A stretch of DNA of 64,000 nt from IMG/VR virus record IMGVR_UViG_3300018080_000100. One strand, 5' to 3'. Each line of letters opens with the position of its first letter. Within the stretch, counting starts at the first letter, position 1. The DNA comes from a virus. Under the pieces are notes generated by a model. The model saw only the letters and a list, made by a program, of their open reading frames with translations. It did no database searches and was not told where the DNA came from. This document shows positions 317-49,318 of this stretch, one piece after another. Both the position numbers and the translations under genes were made by a program.

Positions 317-895
317 GTGGACATTGGCCTTGGTTGGTTATCGGACTTTGTGCGATGGGTGTCGCGAATCTTCCCGCGCGGCTTACACGTGGATGCCACG
401 CAGGAAGGTGTGATGCTCACGCTCAGTAGAGCGAAGCGCATCAGGCCTGGCTTCCATATCTACTGGCCTCCCATCCAACGGCCGATGGTCCATCCGGTTA
501 AGCGCGACTCTTTCGAAGTCGGCGTGCAGACTCTACCGCACAGATCCGAACGCCCGATTGGCATTTGCATCTCTGTTACTGTAGTCTACACGATTGGCGA
601 CATAATGAAAGCGCTGGTTGACACCTACAACTTCCCGTCGACCATCAAAGACCGAGCGCAGGGCGCTGTCATAGGCGCATGCATCGGCAAGACGATCACC
701 GAACTAGCCGACAATCACCAGAAGATTAACGCGGCGCTAACACGCAGAATGCGTAAGGCGCTCGACAAATACGGCGTCGAAGTGGAAGAGGCATTCATGT
801 CCGACTTCCACCTGTCCAACATGCATCGAGTACACGGCGGCACAACAGTCCTACCGATGGACGCTGCCGAGGAAGAAGAGGAGGAAGAGGAATGA
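317..895 (+). CDS. SPFH/band-7-like protein with poly-Glu C-terminus
   Basis: 192-aa ORF; the central segment resembles stomatin/prohibitin SPFH-domain profiles (…GVEVEEAFMSDFHLS…); terminal EEEEEEEEE run. Confidence 0.4.
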   Translation: MDIGLGWLSDFVRWVSRIFPRGLHVDATQEGVMLTLSRAKRIRPGFHIYWPPIQRPMVHPVKRDSFEVGVQTLPHRSERPIGICISVTVVYTIGDIMKALVDTYNFPSTIKDRAQGAVIGACIGKTITELADNHQKINAALTRRMRKALDKYGVEVEEAFMSDFHLSNMHRVHGGTTVLPMDAAEEEEEEEE

Positions 896-5164: not shown

Positions 5165-5375
5165 AAAGTGCCTCGATTAGTTGTTTGAACCGCCAACGCT
5201 GTGTGCCACACGCACACCGCCTAAGGATGTCGGGACGCCTCTGCATGATCCAGAGATCTGCAGCGTTTCTTTGTCTCGTGGACATGTATTGCGTCCAATA
5301 GTCTTCAGCAGCCTCTTGGCCGCGTGTGACCCGCATGTCGAGCGCGTTCTGTATCGACCACGGCAGGTATCTCAC
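5061..5375 (-). CDS. hypothetical protein
   Basis: 104-aa ORF; no motif. Confidence 0.3.
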   Translation of the reverse strand: MRYLPWSIQNALDMRVTRGQEAAEDYWTQYMSTRQRNAADLWIMQRRPDILRRCACGTQRWRFKQLIEALYADYKRSQAAKAANKEMHEMSRGDHELVSYDWWR

Positions 5376-5451
5376 GGCGGGGCGTGCTGCACTCGAATCC
5401 TGTTCAGATGGCGCTGTCTGTCCATAGCGGTATCCTCCATGATGAAGGTGA

Positions 5452-7269
5452 TTACAATACTGCGGGCGCTTCGGCGTCCACAGGTGCCTCGGCAGCTACT
5501 ACCAGAGGCGGACGACTGTCGTCTTCTTCGTTCTCAGCCGGACCGTGCAGGTTTTCGGCAAGCTCTAGGCCCTCCTCTAGCCGGTCAGCTTCTCTTAACT
5601 CTTGTTCGGTCATCCTGGCGTTCACGAACTCGGCGACGGTTGGCATCCGTACCGAGCAGTTGTACATGAACTGCCCAATACCCCAGCGGTTGCCCATCCA
5701 GTCGTGATAGCGCGCGTAGAACGCTTTGGTGTGCTTGTGCGCCTTGAACGACGGCGTTGAGTGCAACGCCTCGTGCACGAGCAAATGGGCGTAGCGCATC
5801 CACGCCGTAGGCCCTGTCTTCATGTCGCGCACGTGCTCGCGGTTGATGGCTATGTAGGTCTTGCCGTCCGTCCACGATGTCAACGGACCGTACCCAAGCA
5901 CGATACGCATGTCGTGGAGATTTTTACCAGGACCGCCTGGCCACGCACGCCACAGCTGATTGACGTTCTGCCGTAGGCATCCCAGGACCACAGATTCAAC
6001 ACGATTGAGCTGAGAGTCATCGATGATCTGCGACTTGGAATTCAGCGAGGCGACCAAATCGCCCCACGGTATGTACGTTAGCGCGTAGCGGTCGTACCCG
6101 CCGATTACGCGATTAACCAGCGCCACCAACGCTTCGCAGTTCTGCAGCCCGAAACGGGTCAGCGTGGTGTTGTCTATCACGCACGCCAGCTGATTGATGG
6201 TAATCGCCGCGACATTCGAGCGGTGCCTGTAACTGTAGTTGTCAGCGCCCCGCGGCGGGCTGGTAACTTGGCCACGGGCCACGTTGTGGACCTGCCGCAC
6301 AGTAAGATTCGCACGCTGCTCAAATCGCTTGAAGAGCCGAGCATTCTTGAACTGCTGGGCTTCCAGCTCGCCGTCTTTGGCCTGGTTACAGAGCCGTACA
6401 CGATCATCCTCGGTCAGCCTAACGGGCGCCGCGCGATTACCTGTCCTACGGCGCTGCGTTCCGGGCGTGGAACGCGTGCGCGTCTGCTCGGCGTTAGCCC
6501 GCTTGGTGATCTCCTTGAGCACCTTACGCCAGACAGGGCAGTCATCCATGATGTCGTTGCGCGCGAAGTTCACCTTGAGCGGCTTCTTCGTCACGACGTC
6601 ACCGCCTACACCGTACTTGTACCGGTAGTAGGAGATCACTTTGATGCCCTGGTTGTACACGCGCAGGTCTTGGTTCGCCCGATACCGAATATCGGCCTCC
6701 GGCGTCTCGACGTCCCACGGTACGCGGGCGCGATTGGCGACGAACTTGTCACCGTTCAGCGTGGCGTTCAGCTCAACGTACTTGGCGTTGCTCTTGATCT
6801 CTTCCTGCAGCTGCGACAACTGGGTGTGCGACAGCTGCTTGAACAGCTCTACTGTGACACTGCACCCGTCGCGGTGGTCCAGGCCCTCGGTAAGGTGGTA
6901 GTCCAGGCCGTCGCGCTCGATGTTGACGACCATCTCGAATTCGCCTGAGCGCCAGATGTTGTGGCCGAAAGCGAATAGCTGGCCACGGCCCATCCGGAAC
7001 GCTCCGAATGTCTTGTTCTCTCGTGCCTCATGCATCTTGCCGAAGACCTCGAAGAAGTCCTCGATGTCGCTTCGGGAGCGGAAACCCTTTCCGTTGTCCC
7101 GAATCGTCAGCATATTTCGCGTGAGTTCGATCTCGCATGTGGAGGCGCCTGCGTCGATGGCGTTCATGACGCCCTCGATCGTGGCTTTCCACAGGCTGCC
7201 GGCCTGACGTTTGATTATGTCAACCAGCAGTTGTTGGTCCATTTTGAAGCTACGTCGTTCTCTGCTCAT
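5452..7269 (-). CDS. GHKL-family ATPase fused to a C-terminal HExxH (zincin-like) domain
   Basis: 605 aa. N-terminus has the Bergerat-fold N-box (EGVMNAIDAGAS) and G1 box (IRDNGKGF). C-terminus carries LLVHEALHS (HExxH). The architecture is not a standard described fusion. Confidence 0.6.
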   Translation of the reverse strand: MSRERRSFKMDQQLLVDIIKRQAGSLWKATIEGVMNAIDAGASTCEIELTRNMLTIRDNGKGFRSRSDIEDFFEVFGKMHEARENKTFGAFRMGRGQLFAFGHNIWRSGEFEMVVNIERDGLDYHLTEGLDHRDGCSVTVELFKQLSHTQLSQLQEEIKSNAKYVELNATLNGDKFVANRARVPWDVETPEADIRYRANQDLRVYNQGIKVISYYRYKYGVGGDVVTKKPLKVNFARNDIMDDCPVWRKVLKEITKRANAEQTRTRSTPGTQRRRTGNRAAPVRLTEDDRVRLCNQAKDGELEAQQFKNARLFKRFEQRANLTVRQVHNVARGQVTSPPRGADNYSYRHRSNVAAITINQLACVIDNTTLTRFGLQNCEALVALVNRVIGGYDRYALTYIPWGDLVASLNSKSQIIDDSQLNRVESVVLGCLRQNVNQLWRAWPGGPGKNLHDMRIVLGYGPLTSWTDGKTYIAINREHVRDMKTGPTAWMRYAHLLVHEALHSTPSFKAHKHTKAFYARYHDWMGNRWGIGQFMYNCSVRMPTVAEFVNARMTEQELREADRLEEGLELAENLHGPAENEEDDSRPPLVVAAEAPVDAEAPAVL

Positions 7270-44002: not shown

Positions 44003-44293
44003 CTACCCGCGATCTTTGTCGTCGTCAAGCGTCTTTCGGGCAGATTTGGGCACCATAGCCATGAAATTCTCGATGCGCCCGAGTATGCCTTTGATATGGC
44101 CAGCCTGCTCGAGCGTGACATTGTGGATGGTCTCCCAGCGTGCGATGCCACGCAGCTCCTTAACGGCGTTCATCGACTCGTAGACGAATCTGTCGGCCTC
44201 CTTCTCGATAGGGATATAGGCCAGCAAGGATTCGAGATCGTCGAGTTTTTGTAGGGCTACGGCGCACAGCTTGGCCATTTTCTTGGCATTCAT
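44003..44293 (-). CDS. hypothetical protein
   Basis: 96-aa ORF. Confidence 0.35.
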   Translation of the reverse strand: MNAKKMAKLCAVALQKLDDLESLLAYIPIEKEADRFVYESMNAVKELRGIARWETIHNVTLEQAGHIKGILGRIENFMAMVPKSARKTLDDDKDRG

Positions 44294-47076
44294 CGCTCAC
44301 CTCCAATCACCGTGAGTTGGCGTCGGGAAGAACGACATCGTTCGATTTGCTTATTCCACCAAGAGTCTATGATGAACCACCCAATGTCTCCATTATATTC
44401 GCATTCGCAGTCGAGCGCATTGCCCATTTTGAATGCGTCGGTGACCTTGCCCGGGTCCGCAAGCGCTAAATTTCGTTTGAGAAGCGCGTGGTCCAGGACC
44501 GTTCGGGACAGGAAAACACCAGGAGCGCGGTCCGCCTCGGCTATCCGTATGATCGTTGGCATCTTGTACTTATGTGCTTCTTCGGCGTGGCAGAAGCGCA
44601 CCGCGCCGTCTTCGATGAAGCTGTACAGCAGTTGCACAAGCTGGCCGGCCCGACACGTTTCTGAGTCGGAACCGTCGTCGATCAGACGCACACCTTCGTG
44701 TACCACCTGCGGATCACCCAGCCTGGACATCATCTCGGTCATGCTATCAGCGACACCATAAATGTGCTCGCGACACCCGGCCAGGCGCAACTTGTCCACG
44801 CACAACCACTTGAGCCACAGCGGCAATACCAGCGGGCCGTACATACTGATTTCGGGACCAGGCTGTATCGGACTTTCGTCCTGGATGAAGCGCCAGGCGT
44901 CCAGCGTACCCGCCAGCCGCGCCCATGGCTCCGTCATATGGACGATCGTATTGCGCGTGTAGTCGCCGTTGAACAGTGTGCTCATCAGGCGCCGCGACGC
45001 TGCGCTGGCGTCGAGGTTGAGGATCAGTGGCCAGTTGTGCTGCTGCAGGATATCCTCGATCTTGTGGGCCGTACGGGTGCTATCCATGCTCTTGTGCCCA
45101 CCGATACGAAACTCTTGACAACCACTTGCCCGGGCGCTCGCACGCCCAACCATCAGCGCTCCGTGTCCAATCAGTCCGAGTCCGGATATTCTCCGGCCCG
45201 TCGCGGGTGCTACTATGTTTGCACCAAGGCAGACCGTGGACGCCCAGAACAAGCGGTTTGCAGGCGTATCGCGCAATAACGGCACGATTTTCGATGGGGT
45301 AGCGGGAGCGCCCAGGTTTTTGCCTGGCGCCCACTCATCAACGACGTGTGAGGGATCGTCGACGACTTCGCCACCTACGTGTATCGAAAACTGCGGTAGC
45401 GCGAAACAAGAATCCTTCGGTTTCCATCCGAATTTTCCGTCCTCCTTGATTACTTCTGGCTCGTGGAATTGCCGCGCGATGTCTAGCAGATATGCGTTCC
45501 ACCCGCGCTTAACAACCACCAGCTTACCTGCGGCGGCGAGCAGCTTCTTGCGAAGCCAAACGCCTGGGTTTTTGTCGATGGTGTCCATTGCTTCCTGGAA
45601 TGGATACTCATCACCCTTATATAGAATGCGGCCGTTGCAGTACACATCAGCGTCCGGGTCGTCAGTGCATAACACCTTCTCGATCCTGATGATCGCGTTG
45701 GAGATGCACTCGCTCGCCTCAGACTTGACCGACATGTACCAACCTTCGTCCGACTCTATAACCTCTTTGCCGTTGATCCGTGCTGTACCAACCAGCCGGA
45801 CCCTACGTTTGTTACGATCGATTAGCTGTTTGATATCGTCTGCGCACGTGGCGACGAACGACTGCATTTGCTCTGGGGCAATCTCCAACCGGCCCAGCAG
45901 GGCCACAGCCTTGTCTTCTGGCAGCGTGCGCAAGGCGTGCTCCAGCGAGGCTGTCCAGTGTACGGCGTTCTTGTGAATCAAGTTCAGCCATACGTGCGGA
46001 GGCTTACGTCCCAGATATGTAGGTGTCTTGCTGATGCAGATCATCCCGTCGGCACGGGCTGCCATGTTGAACAGGTCTGCCGTCAGCGTAGCGCCCCAGA
46101 ACGTGAAGTGCTTGTCCGGCCGCGTACGCCAGATGTCGTGTGCGACCAGCTCGCAGAGGCGTGTGATGCGCTTCACCTTGGCGTTGTACGTCCCCACCAC
46201 AGGTAGGGGGAGATCTGACTCCCGCATGTGCCGTGCCTGCAGCTTCAGCGCATGGACCGGGTCGTTGAACACGAAGATACGGTCACCGAAACGATCCCGG
46301 TGTGCAGTCTGCGAATCCAGCACGTCGTACATACACAGACCAGACTCCACTTGCGGCCTGTTCGACCCCTCGCCGTCGATAATGTGGTAGGCGTAGTCCG
46401 TGTCGCGCCTGCCCTGCCGCCCGATGAATAGCCAGCCCGAGCATTGCCCGGGCAGCGTATGGAACGGAATGGTAAGCACGTCACGCCAGCCTTTGCCCTT
46501 GAAGAATCGTGCGCCCTTCTTCATCTTGTGCCAGTCGTCGTGCGGTTTGAAGAAGGTCTGGTAGACCCTGAGCCGGTCAGCCCCGCCCATAAACCGGCCC
46601 ATACGTTTCGGCCAGTAGGGCTTCAGCTGGTCCGCTGGCAGCCCTGTTTGCTGCAATATGAAGTTGACCTTCACGTGCCCCTCGCTGATAGCCTCGCGAG
46701 CATCGTCGAGCAGCTTGACGCAGTTCTCCTGCATCCCGAGCACCTGCTTCTCGTACTTCGCCACGAACTCTGGCGCAGACCGTTCTTCAGGGATCGTACA
46801 GCCCGCGGTCACAAGCTTGCGCACCGCCAGCTGTATGGAGCAGTCCCAGTGGCTTGCTGCCAGTGATATCATGTCCCCTTTGGAATGACAGTCGGGACAG
46901 TGGTGCCAATTACCGCCGAACCTGGTATCATTGAATACAGTCAACCGGCGCCCGTGGCACAACGGGCATTCGGTCAACAGCGGTATAGGTCCCTCGCGCG
47001 TCGTGACGCCTAATAGCGGCAGCACTTGATGGTAGTCGACGTGGCTGTTTAGCGATCTGCGCTTCTGGGACATCAC
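44290..47076 (-). CDS. DNA primase (DnaG-type CHC2 zinc finger) / large replication protein
   Basis: 928 aa; N-terminal CPLCHGRRLTVFNDTRFGGNWHHCPDCHSKGDMISLAASHWD matches the DnaG zinc-ribbon (CxxCH…HCxxC…G..I.F); large downstream domains consistent with a primase-polymerase/helicase loader. Confidence 0.5.
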   Translation of the reverse strand: MMSQKRRSLNSHVDYHQVLPLLGVTTREGPIPLLTECPLCHGRRLTVFNDTRFGGNWHHCPDCHSKGDMISLAASHWDCSIQLAVRKLVTAGCTIPEERSAPEFVAKYEKQVLGMQENCVKLLDDAREAISEGHVKVNFILQQTGLPADQLKPYWPKRMGRFMGGADRLRVYQTFFKPHDDWHKMKKGARFFKGKGWRDVLTIPFHTLPGQCSGWLFIGRQGRRDTDYAYHIIDGEGSNRPQVESGLCMYDVLDSQTAHRDRFGDRIFVFNDPVHALKLQARHMRESDLPLPVVGTYNAKVKRITRLCELVAHDIWRTRPDKHFTFWGATLTADLFNMAARADGMICISKTPTYLGRKPPHVWLNLIHKNAVHWTASLEHALRTLPEDKAVALLGRLEIAPEQMQSFVATCADDIKQLIDRNKRRVRLVGTARINGKEVIESDEGWYMSVKSEASECISNAIIRIEKVLCTDDPDADVYCNGRILYKGDEYPFQEAMDTIDKNPGVWLRKKLLAAAGKLVVVKRGWNAYLLDIARQFHEPEVIKEDGKFGWKPKDSCFALPQFSIHVGGEVVDDPSHVVDEWAPGKNLGAPATPSKIVPLLRDTPANRLFWASTVCLGANIVAPATGRRISGLGLIGHGALMVGRASARASGCQEFRIGGHKSMDSTRTAHKIEDILQQHNWPLILNLDASAASRRLMSTLFNGDYTRNTIVHMTEPWARLAGTLDAWRFIQDESPIQPGPEISMYGPLVLPLWLKWLCVDKLRLAGCREHIYGVADSMTEMMSRLGDPQVVHEGVRLIDDGSDSETCRAGQLVQLLYSFIEDGAVRFCHAEEAHKYKMPTIIRIAEADRAPGVFLSRTVLDHALLKRNLALADPGKVTDAFKMGNALDCECEYNGDIGWFIIDSWWNKQIERCRSSRRQLTVIGGER

Positions 47077-47101
47077 AACCTCCGGTACAGGAACCTGAAC
47101 T

Positions 47102-48325
47102 ATGTCTACCGTACACGATCAGACCGTCGATTTGAATGGCCAAGAGCTGCATCGCATCCTCTCTATCTACCCGCTCCCGGACTTCGTGAAGAACGCGAGC
47201 CGGCAGGATGTTTGCGGTGACGACACGCTCCCGCCACATCTGTTTGCCGATATTACTCGTCGGCGCTACCCGATCCACTCTGGCCCGGCCACCGTCATCT
47301 CGTCCGTGTTCTTCCAGGAGAAGAAGGCCGCGATGAACCCGCATCAGGCCGCCCTGATCGAGAGCAAACTGGACAAGGCCGCCGAATACTTCAAGGTGGG
47401 CGGCTACATCCGCCGGCTTACCGAGAAGGTCGCTGAGGCCGCCACGTATGACGAGACTGCGCTACAGGATGGAACATTCGCCATCGTGTTCGAGCGCGCT
47501 GACGGGACCAAGGAGCGCCACTACCCGATGCGCAACGTCCCGGAAGTGAAGACAGCGGCCGTCTGGTTGCGCGACCACCGCGACGAGCTGCCCTTCGAGG
47601 ACCGTCGGCAGATCGCCAACAAGATCCTCGAGAAGGCTGCAGAGTTCGGCGCAGGGTTGCCCGAGCACCGATACATGCTGGAGAAAACGGCTGGTCTCGG
47701 CGCGTGCTCCGGGAAAGACGCAGCCAAACTGATCCGCACGCGTATTTTCGCTGCAGGCAGCACGCACCGGCCGAGCCAGGTCCAGCAGGAGCTGGAGAAG
47801 CTGGCCAAGCTGTGCGAGGAGAGCCCGCAGGCTATTCATCATTTCTCCTCCCTGACGAAGATCGCGTCGATCGTGGATCAGTTCGACCACGAGCACGGCC
47901 TTCAGGGCAAGTACGATGACGTCATCGAGCGCCCGGAGGATGTGTTGTTCGCCGTCACCGCAAAGGCAGCGGCTGATGTCGACGATGACATCGTTGGGAA
48001 CGTGCTGACCGGCAACTACTACAAGAAGGCCGATCTGCAGACCCTTCCGATCAGGGACCTGGCCGACAACCTGGGCGACGATTTCGCACAGGAAGTCAGC
48101 ACGGCAGGCGCCTGGGTCGACATCGAGAAGCTGGCGAGCATCGTGCCGACGCTGCCGCTCGGAGACGCCGAGCTGTTCGACGAGGTCGCATCCGCGGCTG
48201 GCGTAACGCCGTTCGCCACGAAGTCAGCCTCCGTCGGAATGTCGATCTCGGCAGCAGAGCAGATCGCTATGAGCAACCAGCACAAGGCTGCGCCTGGTAG
48301 CCTGTGGGCACGCGCCAAGCGCTAA
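47102..48325 (+). CDS. hypothetical protein
   Basis: 407-aa ORF on the plus strand; no motif. Confidence 0.4.
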   Translation: MSTVHDQTVDLNGQELHRILSIYPLPDFVKNASRQDVCGDDTLPPHLFADITRRRYPIHSGPATVISSVFFQEKKAAMNPHQAALIESKLDKAAEYFKVGGYIRRLTEKVAEAATYDETALQDGTFAIVFERADGTKERHYPMRNVPEVKTAAVWLRDHRDELPFEDRRQIANKILEKAAEFGAGLPEHRYMLEKTAGLGACSGKDAAKLIRTRIFAAGSTHRPSQVQQELEKLAKLCEESPQAIHHFSSLTKIASIVDQFDHEHGLQGKYDDVIERPEDVLFAVTAKAAADVDDDIVGNVLTGNYYKKADLQTLPIRDLADNLGDDFAQEVSTAGAWVDIEKLASIVPTLPLGDAELFDEVASAAGVTPFATKSASVGMSISAAEQIAMSNQHKAAPGSLWARAKR

Positions 48326-48594
48326 TCGTCCTCGACGGCTGATCCGTACTCAACGCGGGGCTCGGCGAATTGGATTCGGGACATTGTGGCGCGCCGCATA
48401 AGCTCGCCGATAGCCTCTATCCAGTCGGCCTCGCTTGGCTCGCCCGGCATCTCCACTGGGCCGATGCAGTTGTACGTATGCGCGTAGCAGTCGTCGATGT
48501 GCGCCTGGGCCTCCTCCTCCGTATCGAACGTCGAAGGATACCATTCGGTCGACGCACCGCCTTGTTGCACTACGATGTAGATATGGTCACTCAT
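48322..48594 (-). CDS. hypothetical acidic protein
   Basis: 90-aa ORF. Confidence 0.35.
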   Translation of the reverse strand: MSDHIYIVVQQGGASTEWYPSTFDTEEEAQAHIDDCYAHTYNCIGPVEMPGEPSEADWIEAIGELMRRATMSRIQFAEPRVEYGSAVEDD

Positions 48595-48878
48595 AATTTC
48601 AACCTCTCATCGCGGACAGTGGGCGCTGGAGGCACACGATGGCACGGCGAGGCCTCTATGGCCTTCATATTGGCCAGCTTCTCCTCCAGCTTTTTGATCA
48701 CATGATCAATATGTTCACGGCACATCCGTGCGCACTCTTCCTCAGAGGTGCACCACTTGTTCGCACCCTTATACATGCGGGTCACGCCGCCGCGTTCCTT
48801 TAGGAACAGGCAGTGCTTCGTCTCGTGGTCCAAGTGGTACACCTCTACGCGCGGCGCACCCATGTGCGACGCATACAT
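48591..48878 (-). CDS. hypothetical protein
   Basis: Start refined to MYASHMGAPRVEVYHLD…, downstream of the GA(C/A)-rich repeat region. Confidence 0.3.
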   Translation of the reverse strand: MYASHMGAPRVEVYHLDHETKHCLFLKERGGVTRMYKGANKWCTSEEECARMCREHIDHVIKKLEEKLANMKAIEASPCHRVPPAPTVRDERLKL

Positions 48879-48900
48879 GACGTAGATGCGGGTCGGTTCG

Positions 48901-49095
48901 TCAGTCGTACTCGTCGTCGAAGTCATCCTCGTCCTCGTCGTCGAAGTCGTCGTCCCAATCGTCGTCGAAGTCGTCGTCTTCGTCGTCGTCCCAGTCGTCA
49001 TCATCATCGTCCGGGTCCACGTCGAAGTCGTCCTCTAGCTCGAAGTCGTCGTCAAGCCTCGGGGACGTTGTGGGTGGGTCTAGGGTCATCGGCAT
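48901..49095 (-). CDS. highly acidic D/E-repeat small protein (DNA-mimic-like)
   Basis: 64 aa; AAGGAG upstream; ~70% Asp/Glu punctuated by W/F (DDDDDWDDDEDDDFDDDWDDDFDDEDEDDFDDEYD). Confidence 0.4.
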   Translation of the reverse strand: MPMTLDPPTTSPRLDDDFELEDDFDVDPDDDDDDWDDDEDDDFDDDWDDDFDDEDEDDFDDEYD

Positions 49096-49318
49096 TTTGA
49101 ATCTCCTTGAATTCCCTGGGCAGCCTGGCAAAGGTTCGGAGCGCGAATAACACCAACAGCGCCAAGGCCGTGTGTGTACACGTCTTGTCGCTGCCCGCAA
49201 TCCACAAACCGACCTGAACACCAAACAACCCAATCGTTGCCAGAATGAGCAGCAGGGACTGTATGACAGGCACCGTACATAGCTCACCGATTATCGAAAG
49301 CGTTTTCGGGGGCTGCAT
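49052..49318 (-). CDS. small membrane protein
   Basis: 88 aa; AAGGAGGG upstream; two TM helices. Confidence 0.4.
   Translation of the reverse strand: MQPPKTLSIIGELCTVPVIQSLLLILATIGLFGVQVGLWIAGSDKTCTHTALALLVLFALRTFARLPREFKEIQNADDPRPTHNVPEA

Follow-up and report, generated by a model that had tools for sequence, protein, structure and literature searches.

Comparative analyses show that a jumbo phage carries a real gene for a 64-aa protein made up largely of Asp and Glu residues, in which a polyanionic chain studded with aromatic residues is maintained by selection, and we tentatively propose that its product could act as a disordered polyanionic decoy on basic nucleic acid-binding surfaces, with the aromatic residues as anchors. 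The gene lies at 48901..49095 on the minus strand of the 64,000-nt stretch of viral DNA analyzed here (IMG/VR record IMGVR_UViG_3300018080_000100; hereafter the window).

The acidic-aromatic ORF and the phage that encodes it

Translation of 48901..49095 confirms that an ORF of 64 aa is present on the minus strand where the initial annotation had placed it. The product (MPMTLDPPTTSPRLDDDFELEDDFDVDPDDDDDDWDDDEDDDFDDDWDDDFDDEDEDDFDDEYD, followed by a stop codon) consists of a 14-aa non-repeat leader (MPMTLDPPTTSPRL) and a 50-aa D/E core carrying F, W, Y, L, V, and P residues; MPMTLDPPTTSPR is a peptide sequence from this acidic frame. With 34 Asp and 6 Glu residues, the protein is 62.5% D/E overall, below the ~70% originally claimed, but the value reaches 78% across the C-terminal 50 residues. 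The whole protein has a single basic residue (R13), and the core has no K, R, or H. Aromatic residues are present, as had been noted, and number eight (F18, F24, W35, F43, W47, F51, F59, and Y63), but the spacing then described as regular is only semi-regular (6, 11, 8, 4, 4, 8, and 4 residues), with a period of 4 or 8 residues in the C-terminal half. This period matches the 12- and 24-nt periods found by TRF in an imperfect tandem repeat under the core (48898..49011; unit DDDF or 8 aa, 72-80% matches, 4.2-8.4 copies). The good ribosome-binding site that had been proposed is an AAGGAG Shine-Dalgarno (SD) sequence (49103..49108, minus strand) located 7 nt upstream of the ATG, and it is formed by Lys-Glu codons in the conserved KE[IT]QN tail of the upstream gene. 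Codon choice follows the preference of the phage (GAC in 29 of 34 Asp codons, 73% genome-wide; TTC in 5 of 5 Phe codons, 88% genome-wide). An identical protein has been called by gene callers on 14 public contigs from at least eight samples; the DNA of the ORF is identical in these contigs as well and therefore says nothing about the frame.

The other 44 predicted proteins of the window contain 7-21% D/E and have pI values of 4.1-10.8; therefore, acidity is no general trait of this phage, and the acidic ORF stands alone, far beyond what chance would produce in this genome. In the six frames of the window, D/E runs of at least five residues occur three times in the acidic ORF and once elsewhere, as an E8 run at ~869. 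The latter forms the C-terminus (..DAAEEEEEEEE) of a 192-aa ORF (317-895, plus strand), and no further long acidic run exists in the window.

The window matches the ENA metagenome contig ERZ27256796:k141_2629452 (226.5 kb) at 100% identity over 12.2 kb. Its genes, nearly all on the minus strand, include those for a large terminase, an NAD-dependent ligase, and an AAA ATPase besides many ORFans. A megablast search with 6 kb around the locus against 50,697 GenBank phage records returned no match, and the large terminase shares only about 29-33% identity with its counterparts in Vibrio and Salmonella phages of 180-187 kb. Considering the lack of a near GenBank relative and the low identity of the terminase, the source is an uncultured jumbo phage of ~226 kb. 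Two further genes on the minus strand of the window deserve mention: an 845-aa protein (29126-31663) contains a Major Vault Protein shoulder domain (PF11978, E 7e-23) and Vault_3 repeats, which is unusual in a phage, and a 358-aa protein (33008-34084) matches NodZ-type fucosyltransferase (PF05830, E 2e-12).

Comparative evidence for the coding frame

Direct homology search with the acidic protein yielded no significant match among 3714 word-sharing candidates; composition-bias correction removes every match and makes such a search insensitive. Neighboring genes were therefore used as anchors to find relatives, and the homology of acidic ORFs between lineages is here defined by synteny and composition alone. 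The main anchor was the 111-aa gene immediately downstream (hereafter the anchor gene), and the use of a SpoU methylase gene and the p407 gene as further anchors added two extra lineages, L027 and L030/31/32/34. An acidic-aromatic ORF is found in the same position in five lineages (the window, L011, L012-15, L027, and L030-34; the contig L015 begins inside the ORF and lacks the sequence upstream), among which the identity of flanking genes is 31-86% for the anchor gene and 64-81% for p407. In all five lineages (L011, L013, L027, and L030 were inspected beside the window), AAGGAG or AGGGAG precedes the in-frame ATG of the acidic ORF by 6-10 nt.

GAC-type repeats are free of stops in most frames, so the openness of a frame by itself proves nothing. 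All four indels between the window and L011 within the acidic ORF are whole codons. L012 and L015 share a C-terminal segment of 96 nt that is free of repeats and in which eight positions differ; each of these differences is synonymous in the acidic frame, whereas none is synonymous and all eight are non-synonymous in the Thr-rich (+1) frame. The antisense frame that shares wobble positions is the only other frame with such an 8/0 pattern, but it has three stops in L012. The same test is impossible for eight close relatives (L001-L008, 99.1-100% identical to the window), in which the DNA of the acidic ORF is identical to that of the window. Synteny, whole-codon indels, and exclusively synonymous substitutions together show that the acidic frame is the translated coding frame of a real gene, and thereby support a frame assignment that the initial annotation had considered in need of confirmation.

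The opposite view, in which the acidic frame is non-coding and function resides in the Thr-rich frame, in an antisense frame, or in the repeat DNA itself, is very improbable. Although the repeat of the window can be read through without a stop in several frames, the Thr-rich frame shows the reverse substitution pattern described above and is closed in L012-14 by a stop between its T-rich part and the anchor gene, antisense frames are interrupted by stops in L012, and it is the encoded composition that is conserved between lineages while the DNA sequence of the repeat is not. Moreover, a search of the locus against Rfam gave no match, and no skew inflection was seen. Promoter and terminator signals at the locus did not exceed shuffled expectation.

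The Thr-rich ORF and the start of the downstream gene

The Thr-rich ORF at 48591..49007 had been regarded as an alternative to the acidic frame. It does exist as an open frame of 138 aa, but we rejected it as a rival gene: it is an over-extended version of the anchor gene (stop-free GAC repeats allow the extension) and, as mentioned, it is closed in L012-14. The anchor gene (48591..48926, minus strand; 111 aa, with a conserved LDHETKHCLFLKERGGVT segment) most likely starts at ATG 48926, which is also the start chosen by Prodigal, and shares 26 nt with the acidic ORF, where it is read in the +1 frame. Its N-terminus follows the pattern T-D/E-E/S-P-x-x-I/V-Y-V (TDEPTRIYV in the window) in all lineages, and the first beta-strand of its AlphaFold model (residues 12-18) falls within this conserved region; therefore, the gene must begin before the internal ATGs at 48878 and 48863 are reached. 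The 27 Thr-rich codons between ATG 48926 and 49007 are an artefact. Considering that the overlap covers the first nine codons of the anchor gene, both frames are probably translated there.

The SD-like motif of the anchor gene, GAGGA (48932..48936, minus strand), lies 5 nt before ATG 48926 and consists of Glu and Asp codons of the acidic ORF. The arrangement GAGGA, 5 nt, ATG is contained in GACGAGGACGAGGATG, which is common to the window and L011 and is composed entirely of Asp/Glu codons. Analogous sequences are GGAGG..ATG within GGGAGGATGATGACGATG in L027 and GAGGAGGACTGATG in L030. Thus, an SD and start of the downstream gene built of Glu/Asp codons can be located in four lineages (window 48924-48936, minus strand; L011 2610-2626; L027 ~5400-5420; L030 ~5313-5327, minus strand).

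The anchor protein is mildly basic (pI 8.3), and its homologs are 90%, 53%, and 57% identical, with 31% for L027. Comparison of its predicted structure (pLDDT 68) with PDB and BFVD produced no match at E<=0.001 and gave no clue to its function. A single-sequence search of IMG/VR with this protein found nothing, and a profile search likewise found nothing in IMG/VR; in JGI metagenomes it recovered L012 alone, a contig known by then.

Selection on amino acid composition

The sequence of the acidic ORF is not conserved between lineages, but its composition is: six acidic cores contain 73-93% D/E. The 54 non-acidic residues in these cores are 22 F, 9 Y, 6 W, 6 L, 3 I, 3 P, 3 A, 1 V, and 1 N, with no G, H, K, Q, S, T, or R at all, even though G, H, K, and Q are a single mutational step from D/E codons, and 40 of the 54 are at least two nucleotide changes away from any D/E codon. 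The hydrophobic residues recur at intervals of 4-8 positions, and the replacements between the window and L011 are like-for-like (W to F, F to Y, Y to F, and D and E for each other). Because the non-acidic residues are almost exclusively F, Y, W, L, and I and never G, H, K, or Q, the architecture of polyanionic spacers and aromatic stickers is a selected design and not a decaying GAC repeat or microsatellite.

These data bear on the role of the peptide itself. A rather improbable alternative is that the ORF merely serves as a translational-coupling leader or spacer for the downstream gene, held open by a slippage-prone GAC repeat, and that the peptide has little or no function. The position of the downstream SD and ATG inside the acidic ORF in four lineages would fit such a role, as would the rapid change of sequence and length (58-97 aa across lineages) and the openness of GAC repeats in most frames. 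However, coupling requires ~15 nt rather than 58-97 codons, the strong enrichment of F, W, L, and I is not mutational and the one-step products are wholly avoided, and the N-terminal leader is conserved between the window and L011, with identity at 19 of the first 23 residues. Furthermore, the ORF is kept in L030, where an unrelated gene replaces the downstream gene, and no length polymorphism is seen among the eight contigs nearly identical to the window.

Even less probable is a function as a sink for cations or polyamines or as a charged solubilizer (entropic bristle), which would buffer Mg2+, Ca2+, or polyamines or keep proteins soluble. From chemistry, ~40 carboxylates in 64 residues would be expected to bind divalent cations, but ion binding does not need strictly maintained aromatic and hydrophobic residues, and the rest of the phage proteome lacks an acidic, halophile-like adaptation.

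A fast-evolving cassette of small genes

The gene order around the acidic ORF is p289, SpoU methylase, a gene for a two-transmembrane (2-TM) protein, acidic ORF, anchor gene, and p90, followed by the convergent gene p407 and then by p928 and p96. The 2-TM gene (49052..49318, minus strand) overlaps the acidic ORF by 44 nt, has homologs in L011 and L012-14, and encodes an 88-aa protein with two hydrophobic segments, which were assigned as putative TM segments by inspection of the sequence only. The last gene of the minus-strand run, p90 (48322..48594; 90 aa, pI 4.1), overlaps the anchor gene by 4 nt and is variable among relatives. Upstream of the anchor homologs in L011 and L012-14, an ORF rich in D/E and F/W/Y is again present, preceded by a 2-TM mini-protein. 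In L027, the acidic ORF encodes 79 aa and the anchor gene is present (31% identical as noted), but the 2-TM gene is not. In L030/31/32/34, the acidic ORF has ~85 aa and the anchor gene is lacking; what follows downstream encodes an unrelated protein with a single TM segment.

Among relatives, p407 is 54-81% identical, and the small genes between SpoU and p407 have been gained, lost, and replaced: the anchor gene, where it occurs at all, can be as little as 31% identical, a different gene occupies the position of p90 in L012 and L015, and two relatives, L029 and L033, have no acidic ORF. Such turnover is typical of accessory genes and suggests a fast-evolving cassette. Within it, the acidic ORF is the most persistent small gene and outlives both neighbors, which argues against its being a mere leader or an obligate partner.

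It is nevertheless possible, albeit unlikely, that the acidic protein acts on its cassette partners, as a subunit, chaperone, or antagonist of the small membrane protein or the 111-aa protein; it might, for example, be the soluble acidic arm of a membrane-associated module and no decoy for host proteins. In favor of this, the gene overlaps its neighbors by 44 nt upstream and 26 nt downstream, with SD sequences inside each other's codons; a small TM protein is encoded upstream in the window, L011, and L012-14 and downstream in L030-34; and the anchor protein is mildly basic. On the other hand, the acidic ORF is kept without the 2-TM gene in L027 and without the anchor gene in L030-34, and L030 encodes its single-TM protein, which bears no relation to the 2-TM protein, on the opposite side. 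A fusion of the 2-TM and acidic proteins in L029 was considered and rejected, as the match is weak, covers 15 aa, and resembles what a deletion would leave behind. The fact that a small membrane protein adjoins the acidic ORF in four of the five lineages is left unexplained by a model of a cytoplasmic decoy.

Searches of the cassette genes against Pfam, PHROGs, NCBIfam, and PADLOC matched nothing except SpoU and, further upstream, Band_7, and no anti-defense or host-takeover annotation was recognizable among the neighboring genes. A search of IMG/VR with p289 found nothing. In an exact-sequence cluster look-up, the acidic protein was absent from the clustered collection and its neighbors had no names. 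Ten relatives that share only SpoU (L017-L026) have no other cassette gene in common and were uninformative.

Several rearrangements were observed in individual relatives. In L029 (5208-5651, minus strand), the 2-TM homolog is extended to 147 aa and its tail contains HVEVVDEAEH, which resembles the anchor protein, and PPELDDDF; it looks like a deletion/fusion remnant of the cassette. In L027 (4998-5207), what is left of SpoU is a 69-aa product in which its N- and C-terminal ends are joined in frame; this relative also lacks the 2-TM gene. L012 (1-42 and 570-617) and L013 (358-864) carry two copies of the final ~16 codons of SpoU on either side of an extra ORF of 168-174 aa, an arrangement that suggests an insertion with target-end duplication. 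A 165-aa protein of L033 was tried as an anchor homolog and rejected (hhalign probability 3%). L018, a contig of a different jumbo phage, encodes 1.2 kb from its SpoU homolog a 184-aa protein (5462-6016, plus strand) with an internal D/E-F tract, EDDDDFDDEDDFDDSDFDNGEDEEDFDDDEDDEDL, between basic regions. The block p96-p928-p407 (44003-48325) is 33-81% identical across all related jumbo phage contigs and matched no Pfam, PHROG, NCBIfam, or PADLOC family, and the p928 homolog of L027 has, by eye, an N-terminal Cys-rich motif that resembles a zinc ribbon.

Predicted disorder and a possible decoy mechanism

The initial annotation had proposed a DNA mimic similar to the anti-restriction proteins Ocr and ArdA. 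Both are folded proteins whose carboxylates are placed on a rigid scaffold that resembles B-DNA. T7 Ocr (gp0.3) and ArdA are, like the phage protein, small and strongly acidic, and they come from mobile elements and compete with DNA for DNA-binding enzymes. A Pfam scan of the window protein and three homologs (E<=10) gave no match, Ocr (PF08684) and ArdA (PF07275) included; phmmer against all PDB chains (E<=10) detected nothing for the acidic protein, nor did searches against PHROGs, NCBIfam, and PADLOC. The AlphaFold2 model of the acidic protein, built from the single sequence, has a pLDDT of 57 (all residues 50-70), a pTM of 0.14, and no secondary structure; the protein is probably intrinsically disordered, to the extent that a single-sequence model, which is a weak basis, can indicate. 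Given that neither a Pfam or PDB match nor a predicted fold was obtained, sequence comparison indicates that the protein is not a member of the Ocr or ArdA families, and a folded DNA mimic is unlikely. A folded mimic of the Ocr/ArdA type that blocks Type I restriction-modification is accordingly given a very low probability: its strong net negative charge and phage origin are all that speaks for it, whereas the sequence is of low complexity rather than of the kind expected for a patterned surface on a scaffold, and the protein, unlike Ocr and ArdA, is predicted to be unfolded. A literature search on aspartate-rich phage anti-restriction proteins found nothing relevant. What stands of the earlier proposal is the broader idea of a nucleic acid mimic or decoy, which is still the most plausible role.

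As we envisage the decoy, the product would be a disordered polyanion with ~40 carboxylates in 64 residues and almost no basic residues, into which one aromatic or hydrophobic residue is inserted per 4-8 positions. The carboxylate chain might fill a basic groove in which its target binds DNA or RNA. This target would most likely come from the host, with RNA polymerase, nucleoid proteins, nucleases, and immune sensors as candidates, and the aromatic residues would be anchor points that add affinity and some specificity. The protein would be co-translated in the overlapping run of small genes (2-TM, acidic, 111-aa, and 90-aa), in which codons of the acidic ORF would supply the ribosome-binding site of the next gene.

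The closest documented analogue is the central acidic domain of Gp44 of the Bacillus phage SPO1. Residues 56-122 of Gp44 are 57% D/E, contain no basic residue, have internal repeats, and are disordered; the domain is ssDNA-like, has been proposed to be an ssDNA mimic, and binds the beta and beta' subunits of RNA polymerase (PMC8208478). The window protein likewise contains a phage-encoded tract of more than 55% D/E without basic residues (78% in the core, with no K, R, or H) and with predicted disorder. In Gp44, however, the acidic segment is one domain of a 237-aa protein, between a folded DNA-binding N-terminal domain and a C-terminal region, whereas in our case the acidic tract makes up nearly the whole 64-aa protein, and regular studding with aromatic residues has not been described for Gp44. 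A sequence relationship to Gp44 was not detectable and no PHROG match was obtained, with composition-bias filters making the search insensitive.

Short acidic tips of bacterial nucleic acid-binding proteins provide further parallels. [quoted passage not shown] These tips are, like the phage protein, short disordered acidic peptides; the SSB tip also has aromatic or hydrophobic anchors, and DFDDD is common to it and the phage protein. Unlike them, the phage protein is a free-standing array of ~8-11 units, since the tips are 5-9 residues tethered to a folded protein.

This likeness raises a low-probability alternative in which the phage protein would be a multivalent mimic of acidic-aromatic docking tails such as SSB-Ct and would titrate SSB-interacting genome-maintenance enzymes away from host SSB. 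The core repeats D-F-D-D-D and D-D-D-[FW] are compatible with it, and DFDDD and DDDF/DDDW are present in the window protein. Nevertheless, the C-terminal Pro-Phe-COOH is absent in every homolog (the ends are EYD, DFD, HYYD, FDD, and EED), which weakens the model, and the spacing of the repeats and the identity of the aromatic residues vary freely between lineages.

Parallels also exist among eukaryotic polyacidic proteins. Prothymosin-alpha, acidic activation domains, and the acidic-aromatic motifs of histone chaperones are disordered and bind basic partners. They share with the phage protein an extended stretch of D/E that is interrupted here and there by aromatic or hydrophobic residues, but they belong to another domain of life, are not homologous to it, and have partners such as histones and Mediator.

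Wider occurrence and implications

An exact search for (DDDF)x3 in the DNA of 2.9 million viral contigs returned eight loci. Three unrelated phage contigs (L035, 1514-1549, minus strand; L036, 4016-4051, minus strand; L038, 12172-12450, plus strand) contain stand-alone acidic-aromatic ORFs of 71, 85, and 92 aa, each preceded by an SD sequence, and in L042 (1557-1592, minus strand) an SD-preceded ORF of 136 aa joins an acidic tract to a Cys-rich, probably zinc-binding domain. The GC content of these four unrelated contigs is 0.44-0.61. Two of the eight loci are giant-virus MAGs. In L040 and L041, which have an identical open frame of 73 codons, the motif is confined to the end of this frame and the remainder is not acidic. 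The neighborhoods of the unrelated (DDDF)n ORFs showed no common theme.

The recurrence of such ORFs hints at a class, probably convergent in origin, that standard pipelines overlook. It is conceivable, but rather doubtful, that free-standing mini-proteins of polyanion and aromatic stickers form a recurrent convergent class of phage effectors, namely disordered decoys with multiple binding units that would block host proteins of genome maintenance or immunity. Members of such a class would occupy basic nucleic acid-binding grooves or the docking pockets of acidic tails, and the jumbo phage gene would be one of them.

For annotation, the locus is a case in which composition alone left the reading frame ambiguous and this ambiguity is now resolved. 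It also illustrates how compactly genes can be packed, with Asp/Glu and Lys-Glu codons serving at the same time as the ribosome-binding site of the next gene. If the decoy reading is true, the acidic protein would be a minimal stand-alone form of a strategy documented so far only as a domain of a larger protein (SPO1 Gp44), in which a nucleic acid is imitated by a disordered chain and not by a sculpted fold. Proteins of this kind are erased by bias filters and easily dismissed as low-complexity noise; being invisible to homology searches, they may therefore represent an under-counted class of counter-defense or host-takeover factors.
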